DNA of 63,267 nucleotides, the filler included, from Dimargaris cristalligena (lineage: Eukaryota): NCBI GenBank assembly GCA_003614675.1. It is 8 parts of 8 records of this genome, joined end to end, with 100 filler letters (N's around TTAATTAATTAA, not from the genome) between each part and the next. Parts side by side here need not be neighbours in the genome. Positions count along the whole stretch, not along the records: positions 1 to 7,875 come from ML003381.1; 7 more parts are not named here. The stretch is one strand, 5' to 3'. Below are positions 522 to 54,684 of the stretch, piece after piece (within the stretch, counting starts at the first letter, position 1; each line of letters opens with the position of its first letter). The translations under genes and the position numbers were made by a program. Under the pieces are notes generated by a model. The model saw nothing but the letters and a program-made list of their open reading frames with translations, ran no database searches and had not been told where the DNA came from.

Positions 522-1152
522 CCCAGCGACAATTGTTCGGCTGACCCTGCTCAGTCAATGATGATCGATTGCCGGCAGTATGCCAAGTTCGTTTGTATAT
601 GAAATATATATATAGTATCGCCATAACACCCGACACCCATTTTAGTCGATGGCCTCATTAGGGTATGTATCGTTCCATTATCCCCTCGCAATTTTATTAA
701 TTTTATTCATTTTTGTAAATTTGTATATCAAGTAACCGCCTCAGCTTGATTGCCCACAGCCTGACTTAGCACATGTAAATCGCCACCTCCATAGAAAATT
801 TGGTGTTGAGTCAGTCCACTCCTTGGAATTACAATAAAGCAAATGTTTTTTACTATTAGACAGCATTGGTATATCAGAAGGCAGAGTGTGACCACGATAA
901 TTGAATAAATCTTTCATGAGACCCAACACCTGTGAACATTATACTTGGTTTTAAAATATATAGGCTGTCCAGTTATCACTAACTATTCGAACTACGCAAG
1001 CCAGAAGGCTGAATATTTTTAACGACATTAAAATCAAATTTATTATAATCGGGTGGAATCTATGTAAACGGAATAGTGTGGCAGTAGAATAATCAATCGG
1101 GGTTTAGAATAATAAATCGATTGACAATGCAATAGTATAAACCTGTTACAGA

Positions 1153-1280
1153 GGTCTCAGAATATTTGAAAAGGAATTCACCATTAACTCAAAAGATTTT
1201 TATTCGATGTCGTTTATAGATGAGGTCTGACGGCTCTTCCATATTATATTTCCTTTCGGCCAATTAATTCATCACTATAG
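1153..1280 (-). ncRNA. SNORD49: Box C/D snoRNA, U49/SNORD49 homologue
   Basis: Box C GTGATGA 1269-1275, box D CTGA 1157-1160; GGAAGAGCCG-T-CAGA guide/D' (1226-1240) is complementary to LSU CGGCUCUUCC and resembles human U49 GGAAGTGCCGTCAGA (recalled). Confidence 0.8.
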
Positions 1281-1440
1281 AGGTTCACGGAGGGGAGTGC
1301 AGGAGTTGGATCCAGAGAGTTGAAGTGCTAGTAATTACCTAAAGGGTTGGTGATATTGATGTAGACAATAACAATGAATAATCAAATTAGTGATTGGTTC
1401 ATGTTTTGGAAACACCGGCAGCCGAATCCAAGAAGAATTA

Positions 1441-1699
1441 GGGTGATCAGACATCCAAGGAAGTTGTTTACCATCAGCAGGTGCTACACTCAACCAGCCA
1501 GGCAGGATCAGAGGGTCGACGCGGAACGGAAGAATTTACCAGGATCCAAACAAGTGGCTCAACTAGCAAACTCCCCCAGCCCCGAGGGTTATACTACCAC
1601 AAAGCTCAACTGCCCGGGGGCTATCCGAGGTAGACAAGGGCTCTTTGGCCCCCCTTTCGGTGGAAACTGCGGATTGGGAATCATCATCAGATCGAACCC
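1441..1699 (-). ncRNA. U14: U14 snoRNA (snR128) with long internal expansion
   Basis: Box C TGATGA 1681-1689; domain A ATCCGCAGTTTCCACC ~1659-1674; domain B CTTCCTTGGATGT 1451-1463 directly before box D CTGA 1447-1450; terminal pairing GGGT..GA/TC..ACCC. Confidence 0.9.
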
Positions 1700-1920
1700 G
1701 GGAATAACATAACGGTTATTATCGAGGACTAGAGCGGCAGCTTACCTTTTATGTTAGTCGTGAGACGAGCAGAAATGTCCGAGGAGGTAGTCCGCGAGCA
1801 CTTTTGGAAGGAATCTATCGGTACAATCGAAACAGGACATAAGAGTAGATGAACTAATGGGTTAGATACACAGCCTGATAATATATCGAAACAAACCCAA
1901 AGGCAGTTTTATGCTTGGGA

Positions 1921-2077
1921 GGTCAGATTTTCACTGGCTTGCACCGCCCGCCTCCGATTCACAATCCCCAACCAACGTAGAGAAGGATGGGGCAGTACCG
2001 AAGACGAACGATTACGTCGGGTATCCTCACGGTGGATCAGTAATGGAAAGAAGACTATAAAAAGGTTATCATCAGCC
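1921..2077 (-). ncRNA. snR190: Box C/D snoRNA, snR190 homologue
   Basis: Box C TGATGA 2069-2074, D' CTGA 2037-2040, C' GTGAGGA 2024-2030, box D 1923-1926; GTCTTCTTTCC (2045-2055) complements LSU GGAAAGAAGAC; lies upstream of U14 as in the yeast snR190-U14 unit. Confidence 0.8.
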
Positions 2078-2358
2078 ACAAGCGGAGGGAAGGAATATGA
2101 AGTAGACAGGCCGGATGAGTGAGACTTACCATTTGGAAATGATCCGGAATGCAGGGTGGAATACTAGACGAGACATCGCTCACTAGTATTGAAATGGTTA
2201 TAATAATATACAAGATAATAGATGAAGATGAAGAGAGCTGATGCTTCTAAAAATGTAGCAATGACCAGCGACTTATATATTGAAAAGGGTGAGGAAAAGA
2301 TAGCAGCAGCAAATAGGCAAATTGGGGCGAGAGGGGGCATTCTCGCTCTCTGGACGGG

Positions 2359-2519
2359 TGAAAAAAAATTGCCACATTCCACAGTGTACATTTATTTAGG
2401 CAAGGCGGAAAAAAAAATCGGGAGGTGGGACGCGTCTGGGACTGGGCGGGGCGACAAAATTGCTTCATCATCCCACCCAATAGGCCGCCGTGGGTGGCTA
2501 GCCTGCAGCAATCACGTGA
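2359..2519. promoter_or_regulatory. RRPE-like element and TCACGTGA E-box upstream of the snoRNA host gene
   Basis: TGAAAAAAAATT at 2359-2370; TCACGTGA at 2512-2519. Confidence 0.4.
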
Positions 2520-3670
2520 CTGCGCGGTCAGCTGTCCCCGTACCATTGGTTAGCCCGCCACCAATCAACTACCCATTTCCCCCGCCTGCACTGTTGCGTA
2601 ACAACAGCAGCAGCAGCGTAACGCCAGATTATTGTTGAATGGGATGGAGTATATAGGGCCTGTGTATATTCGATTTATTATTATTCACTCGGTGGATTCT
2701 TTTCGGATAGACAATGCCCAGAGTCCAATGAAACTGCCTGGTATGCCACTTGGTGGGAGGGAATATAGTTAGTTGCGAACTAACGATCGACGCACACCGC
2801 CATTGGTAGTACTAGTGTCAGCATTAGTAATTGGAATAGTAAAAGTAGTAGTAATTGGAATAGTAAAGGCAGTAGTCCATTATGGAACTCTATCGAACCA
2901 TGTGCGCGCGGTACGGCGGGGGAAGAGAGTGGGAGGGGGTGTTAACGAAGTAGTGCAGCGGCCATATCATACTCGGACTGGCTCTTGACGACTTTCGGGA
3001 TCTACTGTACCACTGATAAAACGACTCCGAAACGTGTGGTTCCTTTGGGTCTACCACGGTTGTTTCATTTATCACATTTCAGCCTGACGGAGGAGGAGGA
3101 AGGAATTAGGGTTAGTTGGTACGCATATATACACAAACACGCATACACTCTCTTTTCCCTTATGAAACAGCGGCTTATTAGTAGAGGGTAATATGTGGGT
3201 GAATCATGCAAAATGCATCATCTACCTTACTTACATACTTAGAGAGAGGACTAAGGTTAGCCACCGGTTCCCATTAAGAAGGGGATTTTGATGTGGTGGC
3301 CCTTTTAATACTTACTTACGTTTACCCAGTATAGTATTAGTAGTAGTAGTAGTGGTAGCCTAATAACTACTAACATCCTCCTCTCTCTCCGGCAAATAAC
3401 TGCTTCGATTTCCTCGGCCGAATTCTCTCCTCTTTCCCCTTTTCTTTCTTCTCCAACCCACTATTCTCAGTGCATTCCTTCCTCTCCTCCTTTCCTCCCC
3501 GCTTTACTCGGCCTCTATATATTCCAAACTATATTATCCTCCCCTCCGCCTACTTTGTTCTCTCTGCGTTAAGCCCATTCCCCCCCCCCTTTGGTGGTAC
3601 CCCCCTACGTACCCTTCGCAACCCCAATTCCATTGCCTCTCTCTACTCCCCCACTCTAGTATTTCACCTC

Positions 3671-4332
3671 ATGTCGACCCCTACTCGCCGTCGTCTTATG
3701 CGCGATTTCAAGCGACTCGAGCAGGACCCACCCACCGGTGTTTCGGGCTGTCCGAATCCCGATAATATCATGCTCTGGGAAGCCGTCATCTTCGGTCCCG
3801 GTAAGTCACACCACTTGCTTGTCTGTGTACGAGACTCCCTTCTATCGGCGGTCTCCCGTCTGACAGAGGGGGGAGGTTGGGCTCTTTCGCCCGAGTCCAC
3901 CCCAACCTACCTGCATTCCGATACCAACTGCTAACCTAACCCCGTTTTGGACCGCCTTTTCAATTGTCCGATACTTCACCTCCCACTTTCTCTCCTCCAT
4001 TATCCCCAGAGGATACGCCGTTCGAAGACGGTATCTTTAAACTCCGCCTGACCTTTGACGAGACCTACCCCAATAAACCCCCCAACGTGCGTTTCTCGTC
4101 CCGCATGTTCCATCCTAACGTGTATGCCAGCGGGGAACTATGTTTGGATATCCTCCAAAACCGCTGGAGTCCGACTTACGACGTGGCAAGCATACTCACT
4201 TCCATCCAAAGTCTTCTTCACGACCCTAATCCCAACAGTCCCGCCAATTCCGAGGCCGCTCAGCTCTATCGGGAAAACCGCAAGGAGTACTTGCGCCGAG
4301 TCGCCGAGACGGTGGAGGAATCCTGGGTGTGA
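3671..4332 (+). CDS. RAD6: Ubiquitin-conjugating enzyme E2 Rad6/Ubc2 (150 aa; exons 3671-3800, 4010-4332)
   Basis: [55 protein letters not shown] intron restores [11 protein letters not shown]. Confidence 0.97.
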
Positions 4333-6857: not shown

Positions 6858-7875
6858 ATGAACGCCAAACTCTGCTGGCGTAATGTGCTGTTTCGACGGG
6901 ATCATGGGCCCAGTTCGTACTTCCGCGACACCATGTCCGCCTCGTCCAGCTCAGACATAGCCCACGGCTCCCACCCGGTTGATATCGCTGTGCCCAGCGG
7001 TACCACCAGTGCCGCCCTCCACTTTTTCTTCAGTGTTCGGGGCGCTGCTCCACCTGCGGCCCCCTCAGCGCCCCTCCATCTTTTCTACGTGGAACTGGAG
7101 CAGAACTGCGATACCGGTGGCGAAACCCGCCTCTCCATGGACTTGGGTTTTTATAGCCCTGGTGCTACCCCCGTCTCCCCAACAGCGAGCAGTCACAACT
7201 CCCAACCCACCTTCCCCCCCTCCGAGGCGGGGGCTGAAGTATCCTCTGTAGACTCCGACTGGGTACACGTTACTGACCTTCCTTCTGGGCCGCATTCCTC
7301 ATACCGTGAACGGGAATACAATTGTGAGATAGCCTGGTCCTTACCCGCCCCACCTCTACCTGCCCATTCCAGTCTAGCCAGTCGCTCACGGACGGGCTCG
7401 CGCTCCGGTACAGGACGCTCGGCGCCTCCCTCCCCTACCCTATCAGCTGCCCGCCTGACCTATCCCGTGGTTTACAAGCGCTGCCAGATTGTGAGCGGAG
7501 ATACGGGCGAGGTTTTATTCGACATGACCTATCATGTTCGATTTACGGATCCCGAGTCCTTCCAGCAACCCACCTCCTCCTCTGCGAAACCCGCCGAGCT
7601 CAAACTCCCCCTAGCTCCCATGGATACGTCCCCTTCAGCCCCCTGGGTTTCCCCGCAAACTCCCACTACCCGGGGTCCTACGGTACCGCCCTTAAGCCAA
7701 GGCCAGTGTCTCCCCTATTCGCCGCTAGAGAATAAGGGCCCCCATGAGGAATGCCCGCTCCCCCCACTATCGACATCATCGACCAATACCGGGAGTAATA
7801 GTCTCCTCAGTGATACCCCATCTCAAAATTCCAAATCCAAGAGCTGGCTACGAAAGACCAAGTCAGTGGTCATGA
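6858..7875 (+). CDS. Hypothetical Ser/Pro-rich protein, 3' truncated at contig end
   Basis: 339 open codons from GCCATG running into the linker; no recognised domain. Confidence 0.6.
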
Positions 7876-7975
7876 NNNNNNNNNNNNNNNNNNNNNNNNN
7901 NNNNNNNNNNNNNNNNNNNTTAATTAATTAANNNNNNNNNNNNNNNNNNNNNNNNNNNNNNNNNNNNNNNNNNNN
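7876..7975. other. Artificial contig linker
   Basis: N44-TTAATTAATTAA-N44 (stops in all six frames). Confidence 0.99.
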
Positions 7976-28686: not shown

Positions 28687-30593
28687 TGTACTTTGATAAA
28701 ACCTGTTATCAAAAACAGCGGTAAAAATAGTTGGCCAAGATATACAAAAGGAGTTATCAGAAAGTAAAGAAAATGCAAATCGAATAATTACGCTCTTTAG
28801 GGTAAAATATGGGCATGAATAGTGATAAAATATATGTAATGCCCGCTAAAATGTCGAAAAAATAGATATTTGCCGATAGTGTATTAACATATTACATGGT
28901 GCGAAGACAGGTAGCTGGTATGCAATATTAATGGACGCGAAAATGGGGATATATATATACGCATGGGTCTCATCTCGCGCATAATATCTGGCAAGATGCG
29001 ACGTCGACAGCCAGTGGATAGGGAACTCAGCAAGGGCAACTAAGTTTCTTGAAATTGTAACCTAAACGACACGCGTCTGGTGCACTTCCCCGTGGGCCTT
29101 ACGTTGAGCCGGTCCGCCCTATAGTAAAAAATGACCATGCGGATATTGAAAGGCACCCATTCTACGAGTGAAAATATCAAGATCCCCTCCTTCTGGTCTT
29201 ATAGAGCCACCCTCACCAGACTGGTTCCGAATGAATAATCGGTGGCACCAAAAAGAGTCGAGCCAATCGGGATACTGGTTGCAGGATCCGGCATGCGAGA
29301 TTTACAGGGGGGGCGAGGGAGGGAGGGATTTTTGGAATAGTGAAAGCCACCCCCTGTGGTGCGACCATGAGATAAAATTGGTGCGATCTTGGCCTGGCTA
29401 GAACAGCGGCTTATTCCGCAAAATACGGAAAGGAATGAAACGGTAATGATTAATGTTGCAATCGCGATAATGCCATTCTTTTTCGAACAACTGTCCAACG
29501 AAGGGATATTGGCGGAGGTTCTGGGGCGGTTCTAAAAATGAAACGAAGAAAGCTTGCTAATGGTCACTTGGTTCCCCCTTCGCATCTTTTCCAGCCTAAC
29601 CTGTTGTCCTCCTAACAGACGACATAACCCCCCGTTGATAACAAGGCCGTTTGGTTGGAGTGTTCTTTAGCCTTGGTTGGGTGCACAATTCTCAAAGGCC
29701 TAGCCAATGCTATGATGAAATGGATGAGTCTTGTTTCAAAAGAAGATGAGTCTAAGGTTATACTCCTTGAATCCACGGTGGGCGCACTGAGTTCACAGTG
29801 TAGCCGTGGCTTTGCTGTAAGCTGCCATGGTATCGACATCTAATTGGTTTTAGCTCCGAACCGGGCTCTTTTATCGATACCGCTGACCAAGGCCCTCAAT
29901 ATAGACTCCAACATCCCCATTCTGCCTTCCTCCTTCGCTGTTATTTTCGTGGTCTCAAAAAACCCAGGTGCGTCATCGGCCTTTAGAGAGCTCACTTCAT
30001 CCCCAATTCCCCCATTTGCTCTTGATTTCCTCTGAACAATCTAATATTATGCCACAATTCAAACGAGTCTGACATTGAAATCTTTCCGGAACCACCCTAC
30101 CCAGTGAGACAAGAGTCTTGAAACAACCGGGCTGCCGCATCCCAACCATTGAAAACCACCTAGGGATCAAATCTGTATTCCATATCAGCTTGATCAACCT
30201 TTGTTAGCGACGAATCCTGAGCTGATTGGATTTTGAAAGTGTCTGGAGACTGGAAGTCTATGATTCAGACAGCAGGACTAATAGGGAACTTCCCTTTCTT
30301 TCCAGCAAAGCAATGCGAATCTCTAAATAGGGCCAGACGGCAGCCTGTATTACACATGTACAAAGTAATAAACCAGGAAATCCATACCAGTAATGGCGGC
30401 TGGCCCCTCTCAAATGGCTGGTATAAATACATGGGCTGTGGTCCATATCGATGCTCTACAACATCTCCGATTCTTCAACATCATTACCTATTTCCCCCAG
30501 ACTATCGAAGTTCTACTCACATTATTATAATCCCAAATCCCCTGACTCGCATCCCAAGTCCTTCCATCCCCTAACAAACCCACCACAGATACC

Positions 30594-31665: not shown

Positions 31666-31765
31666 NNNNNNNNNNNNNNNNNNNNNNNNNNNNNNNNNNN
31701 NNNNNNNNNTTAATTAATTAANNNNNNNNNNNNNNNNNNNNNNNNNNNNNNNNNNNNNNNNNNNN
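31666..31765. other. Artificial contig linker
   Basis: N44-TTAATTAATTAA-N44. Confidence 0.99.
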
Positions 31766-31820
31766 CCCCAACGGGGGCATTGGGGGGGATGGATGGCCTA
31801 AATGGTGGTTGTGTCATACT
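31766..31820 (+). repeat. 55-bp contig-terminal repeat
   Basis: Identical to 23686-23740. Confidence 0.95.
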
Positions 31821-51941: not shown

Positions 51942-54684
51942 ATGACCCATTTTGACATTTTCAATTTTCTGGGCTTGGGCAATTCCGACCCTGTCAAGGC
52001 GGTCGGCCACAACGCGCCCGCAAAAGCTGGAGCCGCCACGAACAAGATCTCCAAGCTCGCCAAAAAGTCGCTATTGGCCGCAACCCCGGCTAAGGCCCCG
52101 AAATCGCCTGGTATGGAGAGCGGTCGCCCAACTAACGACAGCGGTAGCTCCGCCCCAGTGTCCAAATCGCTGTACCACCCCATGCCGTATGTTCATACCA
52201 AAGAAGGTACTATCGACTCGGTCCCCGTGTCTCATAATGCCCAATCCCTTGCTAAAGCTATTATGGGTCGACACACCAACCATGCATCGGCCCCCGTTTC
52301 CTCGGATATCCCACCATTGTGTAGCCGCTCTTCCGGATTTACTTTTGGCTTGTGCGTTGATGGCGAACTCGCCACCACCACCGAGACCAACTCGCGCGAA
52401 TCCCACTCGAAGAAAAGACGGCTGGATGATGATGTTGACGAGCATGCCAAGTCTTCTGACCCACCCAGCAAGCGGCGGGTTGCTGTCACGTCTGGCCCTA
52501 AATCCAGTTACACCTCTTCCACGGTAAGTAGAACATCTGATTATATGAATAGGAGTTGTTCTATTATCCAATACAGAGACATTGCATTGACTGAATGCCT
52601 TTAATGTCTAGTTAAATCTTATCGTTGAGTAATAATTTTATACATGGACCCCACTCCCCACCATCCCTATGATTGTGTTTTCTAACGCAATATCTGGCTA
52701 TACGTCTATGTTCTTCTTCGATTCACCCTTAATGGTGATTCCAGATGAGTCCTGCATTTGTTGGCCCATTCCCCGGCAAGAATTTACTTTCCGTCAAGGA
52801 CTTGTCCGACATTGTCAGTGAGTGTATTGGCGCCGGTAACCCCAATACCTACATCGATATCAAGGTAAGTTGATTATATTCCAGGATTAGTTATTGATCG
52901 TCCCTATTTCCGTCATAAATCATGTCCTCTGCTCAGGTACATTACAGTTGCTCCATTTCCATCGTTTCCCACTTATTTGCTAATCCACTCGCAAATATTA
53001 TTCGCCCCTCTTTGCTATAATATATATTCAACAGCATAAGGAAAACCTGAATCAGATTGTTGTATTGTATGTCCCGTACCTTGATGTGGCACTTGGACTT
53101 CACGATCATCTGGATCACCAATTTTTCACTACCCCTGACGGCGACCCAGCCGCCCTCAAGTCTTCGTATACCCTCGAGGATATCCAGGCCATCTCGAGCA
53201 CCCAGAGTCTGCTCCGGCATATGCCAAACCTAACAGCCATTTTCGAGCGGGTATACCCAACCTTGGCGACGGTGGTTTCCCGTAGATTCCCTGCCCCCTA
53301 CGACACAATCTTTGAAACGACAGTCCGTAAGAATATTATGGACCAGCGTACCGGTGAATACCTCCAATTGTTCGAAGGCCTCGATCCGTCCAAGCCCCAA
53401 ACCTATCTCATGAGCAACAGCCAGCTGGAAAATAACAGCTACCCACCCCCACTTATCCACCTCTCCTACTCCGATGACCCACACAACGAGTGGACCGATA
53501 CCGAGGCGGTGGACGCCGACATTGAACAAGCCCGGTTCGATGACGAGCAAGAATACGAAGTGCTGTCCGTCGATTGTGAAATGTGCATGACCCGCGTGGG
53601 CAATGAATTAACTCGAGTCTCGGTAGTCAACTTTGAAGGCCGGGTCCTTATGGACGAGTTAGTGAAACCCTTCAACCCCATTACTAACTATGTAACCCAG
53701 TACAGTGGTATCACGCCCAGCATGCTCAAGAATGTGACCACCTCCCTGGCCGATGCCCAGGGCATGCTCAAAAAACTCATCGGGCCCCGCACGATCCTCG
53801 TGGGCCAGTCCCTGAACAGCGATCTCAACGCCCTTAAAATGACGCACCCGTTGGTCGTGGATACGTCCGTCATTTTCACGACGCCCCGGGGTAACGTGAT
53901 GGCGGACCGGACCCGGCAGAAGCCTAGCCTACGGTGGCTGACCCAAAAGTACCTGCACCGGTCGATCCAGGACCGTACCATCCGGCACGGGCACGACAGT
54001 ATCGAAGACGCCCTCGCCTGTATCGATTTACTCAAACTGAAACTGGCCCAAGGTCCCCTCTTCGGTGTACATTTCGGTGAGACCATCTCTTTGGTCGACG
54101 GGGTGGCCAACACGCCCTGTCCCCCACGGTTCGCCGAACGGGCTGTGACGGACCGGTTTTACCAGCGGGCCGCCCTCGTCGGCCCCACCCGGCGATTCAC
54201 GGCCTACAATACCCCCAACTCCCTGCTCGTGGCCACCGACCATCTCCCGGAAGGCACCGATCCGGTCCGGTTAATCCTTGACTACGCCCCCCTCCATGCC
54301 CTAACGGTTACCCAACTCACCACCCTCGCGGACTTGTACGCTACCCGGTACCACCAGGCCCTCACCCCGAGTGCCCCGGACCTGGTCCGCGCCCTCCGTA
54401 CCCTCGATGACCAGCTCAACGCTATTTGGGAGGGCCTGGGGGAACACACCGGGTTGCTGGTGACTTCCGGGCATGGCGATATGCGGCTTTCTCTGCCGTC
54501 GATGAAGAAATATACCAGTCTGGACGCGGGCTACCGGCGGCGGATCTCCAACGAAGGACCCGAGAAACCCCTGCGTGAATCCGATGCTACGTGGTCCGAG
54601 TTGGACCAGGCCGCCATGGATAAAGCCCTGCAGTGGTCTCGTCTGGGAATTTCGCTGATGGCTATTCGGCCATCGCAATCTTAA
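51942..54684 (+). CDS. REX1: DEDDh RNA exonuclease Rex1/Rnh70-like (exons 51942-52523, 52745-52864, 53035-54684)
   Basis: ExoI SVDCEMC, ExoII LVGQSLNSDL, ExoIII GHDSIEDA; two phase-0 GT-AG introns. Confidence 0.88.

Follow-up and report, generated by a model that had tools for sequence, protein, structure and literature searches.

In S. cerevisiae, snR190 and U14 are released from an unspliced precursor by endonucleolytic cleavage, as the earlier note on this DNA had correctly stated (PMC11971394). In N. crassa, CD16 (the snR190 homologue) and CD37 (U14) make up cluster V, both intronic in a UHG-like non-coding host, with co-transcription shown by RT-PCR (PMC2780460), and in S. pombe an intron of the lncRNA mamRNA carries, upstream of U14, snR107, an RNA bound also by Mmi1 and Mei2 (PMC11971394). 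An intronic form of the snR190-U14 cluster, which the earlier note had suggested may be ancestral, was thus already published for N. crassa (cluster V) and S. pombe (mamRNA/snR107). Among mammalian hosts, ZFAS1 carries SNORD12/B/C (PMC11971394). U49 is known from animals and plants, another point on which the note was right; a table in PMC3511168 lists it for Arabidopsis and human and gives no yeast homologue. What is apparently unreported at the locus described here is a third, U49-type member and the abutting splice sites at 1339/1338. The main texts of the fungal snoRNA papers searched yielded no three-member arrangement, and snoRNAs went unmentioned, among the matches listed, in the literature on Dimargaris, Zoopagomycota and Kickxellomycotina.

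The window analysed is the whole 63,267-nucleotide stretch from Dimargaris cristalligena, an early-diverging fungus of the Kickxellomycota; one of its ORFs shows 99% identity to a D. cristalligena protein. On the minus strand of positions 2279-1020 we found a TATA box followed by three GT..AG introns with one box C/D snoRNA each, and we put the probability at about 0.7 that this locus is a short non-coding, UHG-like snoRNA host gene, each of whose introns would carry a guide RNA for ribosome maturation. The minus-strand TATA, the three introns, the snoRNA in each of them and the exons with just 22 codons all lie where the earlier note had placed them, except that the intron 3 branch site reads CTAAAC rather than the CTAAC given before. 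The features, in the direction of transcription, are as follows.

2279-2272, minus strand: TATA box (TATATAAG) of the host gene, read from the sequence
2240-2130, minus strand: exon 1, with a putative 5' end and an ATG that abuts the 5' splice site
2129-1815, minus strand: intron 1, 315 nt, with GTAAGT, CTAAC at 1865-1861 and AG at 1816-1815
2083-1913, minus strand: snoRNA 1 (snR107/snR190/SNORD12 type), with a 5-bp terminal stem of 2083-2079 with 1917-1913
2074-2069, 2040-2037, 2029-2024 and 1926-1923, minus strand: snoRNA 1 boxes C (UGAUGA), D' (CUGA), C' (UGAGGA) and D (CUGA)
2055-2045, minus strand: antisense element ASE1 of snoRNA 1, an 11-nt guide
1814-1746, minus strand: exon 2, 69 nt, with 21 of the 22 codons and the stop
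1745-1339, minus strand: intron 2, 407 nt, with AAAAG before GTAAGC (1746/1745), CTAAT at 1390-1386 and AG at 1340-1339
1699-1441, minus strand: U14, unusually long, with a terminal stem of 1699-1690 with 1446-1441
1689-1684, 1476-1471 and 1450-1447, minus strand: U14 boxes C (UGAUGA), C' (UGAUGG) and D (CUGA)
1672-1659 and 1463-1451, minus strand: U14 antisense domains A and B (B, 13 nt)
1340-1337, minus strand: abutting 3' and 5' splice sites (AG/GT), a candidate zero-length exon and recursive splice point, from sequence
1338-1060, minus strand: intron 3, 279 nt, with GTAATT, an imperfect branch site CTAAAC at 1107-1102 and AG at 1061-1060
1285-1140, minus strand: snoRNA 3 (U49 type), with a 10-bp terminal stem of 1285-1275 with 1151-1140
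1274-1269, 1229-1226, 1183-1178 and 1160-1157, minus strand: snoRNA 3 boxes C (UGAUGA), D' (CAGA), C' (UGGUGA) and D (CUGA)
1240-1231 and 1212-1203, minus strand: snoRNA 3 D' guide (10 nt) and extra pairing element (10 nt)
1059-1020, minus strand: last exon, with a putative 3' end
1044-1039, minus strand: poly(A) signal AATAAA, inside the last exon

Transcription presumably starts near 2240. Exon 1 ends in an ATG (2132-2130), directly followed by the GTAAGT at 2129, and exon 2 translates as IPSKSARGLPPRTFLLVSRLT up to a stop, so that the two together hold 22 codons, the only ORF of the exons; a further ATG upstream in exon 1, at 2176, opens an even shorter frame. By its sequence the locus combines the traits of a UHG-like gene, namely several introns with one snoRNA in each and no sizeable exonic ORF.

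The earlier note had called for a covariance search, and this returned the families it had named, in each case below the curated gathering score; at gathering scores, the search of the whole window (63 kb) gave no match. Its assignments of a U14 to the middle intron, of an snR190-type RNA upstream and of a U49-type RNA downstream are nonetheless supported by the sequence. For U14, SNORD14 (RF00016) scored 18.8 bits against a gathering score of 64 and ceN33 scored 15.1 bits. The SNORD14 match is split because of a roughly 190-nt insertion between domains A and B: its alignment covers box C and domain A (window AUCCGCAGUUUCCACC, consensus CAUUCGCAGUUuCCaCC), and that of ceN33 covers domain B and the D box, with 18 of 19 letters matching. 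A terminal stem of GGGU..GAUC with GAUC..ACCC, as expected of a C/D RNA, is present in both the minimum-energy and the centroid fold; a candidate structure in the insertion was rejected, its fold being no better than those of shuffled sequences. Domain B (CUUCCUUGGAUGU) pairs over 13 nt with SSU ACAUCCAAGGAAG in all three rDNAs examined and, as expected of this domain, sets its position-5 G opposite the first C of CC, the C414 equivalent. It is the sole match in the window, on either strand, to a strict rule (CTGA, a gap of 1-2, at least 10 nt and a target in at least two of the three rDNAs). In domain A, which fits the Rfam consensus, nine contiguous pairs can form between CGCAGUUUC and GAAACUGCG (the latter in 24 of 94 rDNA loci), and a C in place of the consensus U would leave a C-A mismatch with 18S unless the D. 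cristalligena 18S differs. We expect this U14 to direct 2'-O-methylation to the C414-equivalent cytosine and to take part in the processing of 18S.

The best Rfam family for snoRNA 1 is snR107 (RF04328; fungal snR190/SNORD12), at 15.9 bits against a gathering score of 44, with an alignment that spans box C, GUCUUCUUU, D' and C'. As expected of an snR107-family RNA, it directly precedes U14 on the same strand, with 234 nt from its D box (1923) to the U14 C box (1689). Its 11-nt guide GUCUUCUUUCC pairs with GGAAAGAAGAC in LSU helix 73, inside the LSU of the rDNAs examined. The duplex ends where nucleotide five, counted from D', pairs with the first G, and it leaves the four nucleotides nearest D' unpaired. 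We regard snoRNA 1 as most likely the counterpart of S. pombe snR107, S. cerevisiae snR190 and human SNORD12, directed at the G2395-equivalent site. Since the duplex comes no closer to D' than this fifth nucleotide, methylation is no more likely than a placeholder or chaperone role like that of the yeast RNA; the S. cerevisiae guide for this site may itself act without methylation (PMC8536666). A search for a second antisense element (box B/ASE2) found no 12-mer of snoRNA 1 pairing with the first 700 nt of the LSU in three non-fungal rDNAs, and one for extra pairing near helix 73 was likewise negative. Strong RNAduplex energies in the GC-rich 3' half of snoRNA 1 were discarded as a pointer to further pairing, as they lie in variable expansion segments without a conserved target; 11- and 13-nt pieces of this half had a complement in 0 of 94 rDNA loci.

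For snoRNA 3, the scores were 13.6 bits with SNORD49 (RF00277, clan CL00062; gathering score 37) and 15.4 bits with plasmodium_snoR28, both families having the consensus GGAAGUGCCGUC(A/c)GA, to which its GGAAGAGCCGUCAGA aligns. The guide GGAAGAGCCG, followed by U and CAGA, pairs with LSU CGGCUCUUCC so that its fifth nucleotide faces the fourth letter, a C; in the rDNAs examined, this target follows the helix 73 site on the 3' side at a distance of 491-494 nt. The context of yeast C2879 (E. coli C2510), which lies in helix 90 and is preceded by G2878 (PMC4718063), agrees with the C in CGG[C]UC of this target. Mutation C2879U impairs translation in yeast (PMC4718063). From the match between guide and consensus, the 491-494-nt spacing, PMC3511168 and PMC4718063, we infer that the target is the equivalent of human Cm4426, and snoRNA 3, as a U49-type guide, should methylate this peptidyl-transferase-centre cytosine (yeast C2879/E. 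coli C2510/human Cm4426). Moreover, a second 10-nt element, CGACAUCGAA, pairs with LSU UUCGAUGUCG directly upstream of the guide target, with a 2-nt overlap, and should help the guide; the LSU stretch concerned occurs in the eight commonest rDNA contexts (78 of 99 matches). U49 is among the human snoRNAs for which van Nues et al. described conserved extra pairing, with overlaps of 1-2 nt (PMC3116282). For the stretch upstream of box D (UUCCUUUUCAAAUAUU), no conserved rRNA target was found, one 10-mer matching in one of three rDNAs, so the second U49 site (human Cm2409/Arabidopsis Cm1510) is left uncovered. In the literature searched we found no paper with both SNORD49 and C4426, none naming Cm2879, Cm2967 or Cm2876, and no guide for the C2879-equivalent site in S. 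cerevisiae or N. crassa.

The target rDNAs were retrieved with a pattern made of the reverse complements of the two D' guides only, separated by a 455-485-nt gap. It found at least 94 metagenome contigs, and all three that were checked proved to be complete eukaryotic rDNA units with the match inside the LSU. As these three were fetched with the guide complements of snoRNA 1 and snoRNA 3, the presence of both targets in three of three is by construction; that the pattern finds LSU rRNA at all, and that other matches are lacking in the window, are independent of the retrieval. None of the 94 loci looked fungal and none had an exact ITS1F site; 21 with an LR0R site were considered as fungal and rejected, their domain I not being fungal-looking. 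Two relaxed guide-plus-box rules (at least 11 nt, 0-4 nt from CTGA; or at least 10 nt, 1-2 nt from CNGA), each with a target identical in all three eukaryotic rDNAs, gave 2 + 2 matches in the window (both strands, 126 kb), all within the three snoRNAs. Bare rRNA complementarities are common there (358 ten-mers and 99 eleven-mers), and many chance matches reach the length of the guides of snoRNA 1 (11 nt) and snoRNA 3 (10 nt). Loose pairs of complementarities (two stretches of 9 nt or more, separated by no more than 80 nt, with targets within 25 nt) number 37-55 per rDNA, about the chance level, so that only the stricter features of snoRNA 3 count. Folding against shuffled sequence gave z = 0.03, -0.68 and +1.52 for the three RNAs, none better than the shuffles, and adds no support; guide RNAs usually fold no better than shuffled sequence. 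Three further candidates in the window were rejected: a HomolD-like CAGTCACG at 2515-2522 (3 window matches against 2.1 expected), a weak snoZ266 match at 2440-2482 (a hairpin with GAUGAUGA and no D box, upstream of the TATA box) and a weak SNORD126 match at 29704-29790, which lies between 3' and 5' splice-like sites and is therefore probably exonic.

The splice signals follow a common geometry. There are 55, 56 and 64 nt from 5' splice site to C box in introns 1, 2 and 3, 108, 108 and 97 nt from D box to 3' splice site, and 47, 48 and about 44 nt from branch site to AG; in N. crassa, intronic snoRNAs mostly lie 41-60 nt from the 5' splice site (PMC2780460). Between the U14 D box and the 3' splice site of intron 2 run about 108-109 nt without any other AG, and in intron 1 a closer AG, at 1855, is just 7-8 nt past the branch site. 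The signals match those of three reference introns of the same genome (n = 3, in UBC2 and a REX1-like gene), which have GTAAGT, CTAAC or CTAAT, and ~50-75 nt from branch site to AG. GTAAGT, GTAAGC or GTAATT stands 50-70 nt upstream of TGATGA three times in the window, always at the host gene, a count for which the hexamers were picked post hoc with the locus already seen. Duplication was rejected as the source of the intron units, the repeats between units never exceeding 12-19 nt. A search of sequencing runs for positions 900-2400 gave no RNA run, and the four runs compared with the window were DNA contigs identical to it (0 differences, 0 joints).

The junctions given in the earlier note imply a zero-length exon between introns 2 and 3, on which that note was silent. 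The adjoining sites each have partner signals of their own (CTAAT, 48 nt, then AG/GTAATT at 1340-1333), and removal of intron 2 would create the junction AAAAG/GTAATT, a usable 5' site; introns 2 and 3 are probably taken out successively through this zero-length exon, for which there is a documented precedent in the S. pombe snoRNA host gene SPNCRNA.445 (bioRxiv 10.1101/226894). The strongest competing explanation, to which we give about one chance in three, is that the host gene is spliced but has no zero-length exon. Either 1338 opens a genuine short exon 3, which would end near 1289 before a weak 5' site, the GTGAAC present at 1288-1283, or a single 686-nt intron (1745-1060) holds both U14 and the U49-type RNA and its internal CTAAT...AG/GTAATT goes unused, intronic clusters with several snoRNAs per intron being known from rice and Drosophila (PMC2780460). 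Nor is the abutting AG/GT unique, since AGGTAAG[TC] or AGGTAATT occurs eight times in the window (both strands). Against a small exon, GTAATT at 1338 stands 64 nt from the C box, like the sites of introns 1 and 2, whereas GTGAAC stands 14 nt from it; against a shared intron, the CTAAT lies 60 nt past the U14 D box and copies, with its distance to the AG, the arrangement in intron 1 (61 and 47 nt), and both the AAAAG/GTAATT junction and the S. pombe precedent favour the zero-length exon.

An unlikely alternative is that the snoRNAs are real but not released by splicing, being expressed from their own promoters or, as in S. cerevisiae, cut from an unspliced polycistron by an RNase III of the Rnt1/Pac1 type, with the splice-like signals unused or only partly used. 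The N. crassa authors point to a putative promoter upstream of each cluster V gene (PMC2780460), an independent U14 promoter is considered by the S. pombe authors (PMC11971394), and here U14 is preceded, at a distance of about 60 nt, by an A/T-rich CATAAAAG. This explanation would nonetheless leave unaccounted for three canonical 5' splice sites 55-64 nt upstream of three C boxes (the sole such combination in the window), branch sites and AGs at repeated distances, an AG-free tract before the intron 2 3' site and signals like those of genuine introns elsewhere in this genome. We regard chance resemblance, that is, ordinary intergenic DNA with functionless boxes, guides and splice signals, as very improbable: every Rfam match is below threshold and short rRNA complementarities are frequent, but U14, snR107 and SNORD49 are three independent family-specific matches in the order and on the strand predicted by known synteny, each snoRNA is closed by a terminal stem, carries boxes C and D and has its guide in register with a box, the guide-plus-box rules match nowhere else in 126 kb (both strands), and the splice geometry is repeated three times.

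The sequence itself shows the motifs, the rRNA complementarities and how specific these are in the window; transcription, splicing, processing and methylation are inferred, for a spliced host gene with a zero-length exon, to run as follows. RNA polymerase II would start downstream of the TATA box at 2279-2272 and yield a roughly 1.2-kb precursor, which would be spliced, introns 2 and 3 probably leaving sequentially through the zero-length exon. After debranching of each excised intron, exonucleases would pare it back as far as the box C/D core particle, giving three snoRNAs and, as a by-product, a roughly 220-nt spliced exon RNA with the 22-codon ORF only.

Tentatively, and with rather more doubt than confidence, we suggest that a third, U49-type snoRNA, absent from model Dikarya, has been kept in an snR190-type/U14 host in which the exon between introns 2 and 3 has shrunk to nothing and the transcript is spliced recursively; the loss of that exon would then serve to put every snoRNA into a lariat of its own. 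Should the three-member gene be shared by related Kickxellomycota and Mucoromycota, the cluster and U49-guided methylation of the peptidyl-transferase-centre cytosine would date to the fungal ancestor, with later loss, and zero-length exons would recur across fungal snoRNA hosts and not be peculiar to S. pombe. The linkage of an snR190-type RNA with U14, known from three ascomycetes, is extended to Kickxellomycota, which supports an old origin of both the linkage and the intronic expression mode. The locus also reveals an annotation blind spot, all three snoRNAs, the essential U14 included, being invisible to Rfam at curated thresholds. A fungal snoRNA survey lists U14 and snR190 as undetected in Basidiomycota (PMC5824354), and divergent, insertion-bearing genes such as these suggest that such absences may be detection failures. 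A fungal U49-type guide predicts an unreported 2'-O-methyl group on the C2879-equivalent cytosine, and the abutting splice sites would allow recursive splicing of a snoRNA host to be studied in a second fungal lineage. The understanding of snoRNA genes in general is unchanged by this host gene.

Compared with the S. cerevisiae SNR190-U14 dicistron, the Dimargaris locus has the same two families in the same order, but the yeast precursor is unspliced and cut by Rnt1, and in yeast snR190 a further element, the 15-nt box B, is complementary to domain I of 25S. Cluster V of N. crassa likewise has an snR190-type RNA (D' guide to 26S G2357, yeast G2395) and U14 each in an intron; it has two members rather than three, its U14 and CD16 are shorter (97 and 122 nt; in Dimargaris about 245-260 and 150-170 nt), its snR190-type guide has 13 nt against 11, and its splicing and co-transcription were established by RT-PCR, whereas the Dimargaris gene is known from sequence alone. 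S. pombe mamRNA/snR107-U14 (RF04328) likewise has an intronic snR190/SNORD12 orthologue upstream of U14 in an lncRNA, but snR107 is 107 nt long, no third snoRNA is described at its locus, and its ASE2, which pairs with 25S 333-343 and is needed for 60S biogenesis, was not found in snoRNA 1. With U49/SNORD49 (human RF00277), AtU49 (RF00337) and snoR28 (RF01604), snoRNA 3 shares the D' guide core and the unusual D' box (GCCGU CAGA), with human and Arabidopsis U49 the predicted target (human Cm4426/4456, Arabidopsis Cm2869), and with human U49 the extra pairing adjoining the target (van Nues et al.). It differs in an A where the SNORD49/snoR28 consensus has U, which gives a perfect 10-bp duplex rather than one with a mismatch, in its length (about 118 nt box to box against a 71-position model), in being hosted in a U14 gene and in the guide for the human Cm2409 site, which was not found; its likeness to U49 fits common descent and convergence on a conserved target alike. 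Mammalian UHG, GAS5 and ZFAS1 are also spliced and non-coding, and each of their introns carries a single box C/D snoRNA, but they have other snoRNA content and are much larger, with regulated host RNAs. Finally, S. pombe SPNCRNA.445 is, as here, a non-coding snoRNA host of a fungus in whose transcript a 3' splice site directly meets a 5' splice site; spliceosome profiling and RT-PCR stand behind that case and the reading of the genome behind this one, and the Dimargaris zero-length exon, unlike that of SPNCRNA.445, would place two snoRNAs in two separate lariats.

The window is fungal, encoding a Zn2Cys6 transcription factor and a UBC2/RAD6-like gene, and its REX1-like ORF (53065–54681) is 99% identical over its full length to a Dimargaris cristalligena protein, the runner-up match being at 32–36%. 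This species belongs to Kickxellomycota, order Dimargaritales, which bears out the earlier note's guess of an early-diverging fungus. Runs of N occur at about 7880–7930 and about 31765–31771, and a 357-aa ORF (6858–7931) loses its end to one of them.

We read the minus strand from 2600 to 800, placing each motif by script, which gave the following layout for the putative non-coding host gene (2279–1020) with one box C/D snoRNA in each intron:

2279–2272, minus strand: TATA box TATATAAG
2129–1815, minus strand: intron 1, GTAAGT ... CTAAC ... AG
1814–1746, minus strand: exon 2, translating as IPSKSARGLPPRTFLLVSRLT*
1745–1339, minus strand: intron 2, GTAAGC ... CTAAT ... AG
1338–1060, minus strand: intron 3, GTAATT ... 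CTAAAC ... AG
1044–1039, minus strand: poly(A) signal AATAAA

The coordinates of the earlier note hold exactly, and the 22 codons attributed to the exons correspond to an ATG (2132–2130) plus the exon 2 translation, with no longer ORF in the exons. The intron 3 branch site has one additional A (CTAAAC); a tandem 15-nt repeat within this intron (1085–1119, 93% identical, spacing 20 nt) runs across the presumed branch site and may be the source of this imperfection. Some 160 nt ahead of the TATA box is a GGGUGGG...CCCGCCC hairpin (2440–2482, minus strand) whose loop carries GAUGAUGA. It gave the top raw Rfam score of the region, to snoZ266 (22.5 bits versus a gathering score of 43), but was rejected as it has no D box. 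Further upstream, in the region common to the host gene and UBC2, CAGTCACG (2515–2522, minus strand) overlaps a CACGTG and resembles the fission-yeast HomolD box; such matches are not enriched in the window (three versus 2.1 expected).

Three introns of the same genome, one in UBC2 (3801–4010) and two in the REX1-like gene (52525–52744 and 52866–53034, placed using the annotated protein), all on the plus strand, served as reference. These have GTAAGT, CTAAC or CTAAT, and an unusually long, AG-free branch-to-AG distance of about 50–75 nt. The proposed snoRNA introns obey the same rules, including the long branch-to-AG distance, and repeat one design three times over. Distances from 5′ splice site to C box, D box to branch A and branch to AG are 55, 61 and 47 nt in intron 1, 56, 60 and 48 nt in intron 2, and 64, about 53 and about 44 nt in intron 3; most intronic snoRNAs of N. 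crassa lie 41–60 nt from the 5′ splice site (PMC2780460). Canonical 5′ splice hexamers 50–70 nt upstream of TGATGA number three in the window, all at the host gene, against a background on both strands of 42 TGATGA and 75 hexamers, the hexamer set having been picked after the locus was seen. All three RNAs have terminal stems: 5 bp in snoRNA 1, 8 bp with a bulge in the middle RNA (U14) and, in snoRNA 3, 10 bp interrupted by an internal loop. The structural reading as a three-intron snoRNA host gene is well supported by these sequence features, and splicing of the three introns is predicted.

Assignment of the RNAs to the snR190 type, U14 and the U49 type, as proposed in the earlier note, is supported by sequence. 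An Rfam search of the whole window at gathering thresholds returned zero matches, but at permissive thresholds the predicted families were found in the predicted order and strand. For snoRNA 1 the top family was snR107 (RF04328, 15.9 bits), a fungal family that includes the S. pombe orthologue of snR190 and human SNORD12, the alignment spanning box C, GUCUUCUUU, D′ and C′. In U14, box C and domain A matched SNORD14 (18.8 bits), and domain B with the D box matched the C. elegans family ceN33 at 18 of 19 letters. For snoRNA 3, SNORD49 scored 13.6 bits (E = 0.35 in a search restricted to this RNA), and the Plasmodium family snoR28 has the same guide. All scores are far under the curated cut-offs, so that none of the three RNAs is a member by Rfam's own standard; the families had, however, been named beforehand, and scaling the reported E-values down by 4227, the number of families searched, leaves roughly 1e-3 to 1e-4 for one named family. 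The U14 model match is disrupted because of a ~190-nt insertion between domains A and B, whose predicted fold is no more stable than that of shuffles and which makes U14 (1441–1699, minus strand) ~243 nt box to box, compared to 97 nt in N. crassa.

The window itself contains no rRNA, and each RNA is predicted to pair with rRNA of eukaryotic rDNA units taken from metagenome contigs. U14 domain B forms a 13-nt pairing with SSU ACAUCCAAGGAAG, placing the fifth nucleotide from box D opposite the leading C of CC. This corresponds to C414, the site listed for U14 of yeast, Arabidopsis and human (PMC3511168). An 11-nt pairing of snoRNA 1 with GGAAAGAAGAC, the helix 73 site recognised by snR190 box A and snR107 ASE1 (PMC8536666, PMC11971394), puts the fifth nucleotide from D′ opposite the first G. 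Because the four nucleotides beside D′ are unpaired, this target pair closes the duplex, a geometry that would be poor for methylation and that agrees with yeast snR190 serving as a placeholder and not as a guide (PMC8536666); unlike in yeast, this G is methylated in S. pombe. In snoRNA 3, a 10-nt guide for CGGCUCUUCC is followed by U and then the D′ box CAGA, so that the fifth nucleotide faces the bracketed C in CGG[C]UC. Another element, CGACAUCGAA, 18 nt downstream, pairs with UUCGAUGUCG, the rRNA immediately 5′ of the target, with which it overlaps by two nucleotides. Human U49 is among the snoRNAs with conserved extra pairing, and such pairings often share one or two nucleotides with the guide duplex (van Nues et al., PMC3116282). 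The U49 target is Cm4426 in human (Cm4456 in newer numbering; PMC9941101) and Cm2869 in Arabidopsis, the available list giving no yeast homologue (PMC3511168). We infer that snoRNA 3 targets this same site, since its guide and D′ box are as in the Rfam consensus, its target follows the helix 73 site by 491–494 nt and the surrounding nucleotides agree. Yeast C2879, preceded by G2878, corresponds to C2510 of E. coli (helix 90), and mutating it is detrimental to subunit joining and to elongation (PMC4718063).

Complementarity to rRNA alone is weak evidence: both strands of the window against one rDNA yielded 358 ten-mers, 99 eleven-mers, 33 twelve-mers and six thirteen-mers, and loosely defined complementarity pairs occur as often as chance predicts. 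What sets these sites apart is that guide and box are in register. With three eukaryotic rDNA units from metagenome contigs as stand-in targets, a strict rule applied to both strands (CTGA, gap 1–2, at least 10 nt, at least two of three rDNAs) matched U14 only; CTGA with gap 0–4 and at least 11 nt in all three rDNAs matched snoRNA 1 and U14, and CNGA with gap 1–2 and at least 10 nt in all three matched U14 and snoRNA 3. The snoRNA 1 and snoRNA 3 matches arise by construction, because the rDNAs were fetched with their guide complements. That search ran the reverse complements of both guides, separated by 455–485 nt, over metagenome contigs and matched at least 94, and each of the three examined proved to be a complete rDNA unit of a eukaryote, matched within the LSU gene. 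The independent information is that no other site in the window conforms to the rules and that the pattern falls in LSU rRNA.

Other snoRNA-like elements were also seen. A 127-nt element (803–929), ~110 nt past the host gene poly(A) signal, has an 11-bp closing stem (GGUGUUGGGUC with GACUCAACACC; fold z = −2.1, 8 of 200 shuffles equal or better). On its minus strand, CUGA directly precedes the 3′ arm and a degenerate C-like UCAUGA follows the 5′ arm; its plus strand has two neighbouring SSU rRNA complementarities (11 nt, and 9–11 nt according to the rDNA used). It fits no Rfam family and may be either a divergent fourth snoRNA or a product of chance. At 30267–30289 (minus strand), 13-nt and 12-nt complements of two different LSU sites abut and run into CUGA (GTTCCCTATTAGT, then CCTGCTGTCTGA), with no convincing C box in the 100 nt upstream. 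A weak SNORD126-like match (29704–29790, plus strand; 16 bits) with AUGAUGA and terminal CUGA was discarded as probably an exonic chance match, since it lies between 3′ splice-like and 5′ splice-like sites.

The AG ending intron 2 (1339) directly adjoins the GT starting intron 3 (1338), so that the exon between them would have zero length, as the junctions given in the earlier note already imply. Both excision orders are workable, since removal of intron 2 regenerates AAAAG|GTAATT and removal of intron 3 first keeps the 3′ site of intron 2 whole. The two snoRNAs could instead share a single 686-nt intron, which departs from the repeated intron geometry. So does use of a weak 5′ site, GTGAAC, in place of the abutting one, which would moreover lie just 14 nt ahead of the C box. 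The zero-length exon at 1339/1338 is, on the basis of these motifs, a candidate.

The earlier proposal of a new ancestral arrangement was overstated, since the core layout of an intronic snR190-type RNA with U14 is published for two fungi. Cluster V of N. crassa comprises CD16, its snR190 homologue, and U14 (CD37), one per intron of a UHG-like non-coding host, with co-transcription demonstrated by RT-PCR and the cluster described as conserved with yeast (PMC2780460). In S. pombe, snR107 lies in a mamRNA intron upstream of U14, for which the authors point to synteny with snR190–U14 and a parallel with SNORD12 in ZFAS1 introns (PMC11971394). We found in print no third member of such a host gene, no U49-type guide in a fungus and no account of snoRNAs from Kickxellomycota or Zoopagomycota. 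In the table for N. crassa, no Cm28xx site of 26S appears; Um2840, three nucleotides off, is guided by CD3, and the other U49 site is assigned to CD41 (PMC2780460). The main text of a fungal snoRNA survey, whose supplements may hold more, names neither U49 nor SNORD49, and in Basidiomycota the survey records no detection of U14 or snR190 (PMC5824354). Two features merit a bench test: the third member of U49 type and the candidate zero-length exon. For the latter, a zero-length exon of exactly this kind was described by Chen et al. within the intron of SPNCRNA.445, a snoRNA host of S. pombe, and termed the first recursive splicing documented for a yeast (bioRxiv 10.1101/226894); the putative Dimargaris host gene has the same abutting 3′ and 5′ sites, as read from sequence.
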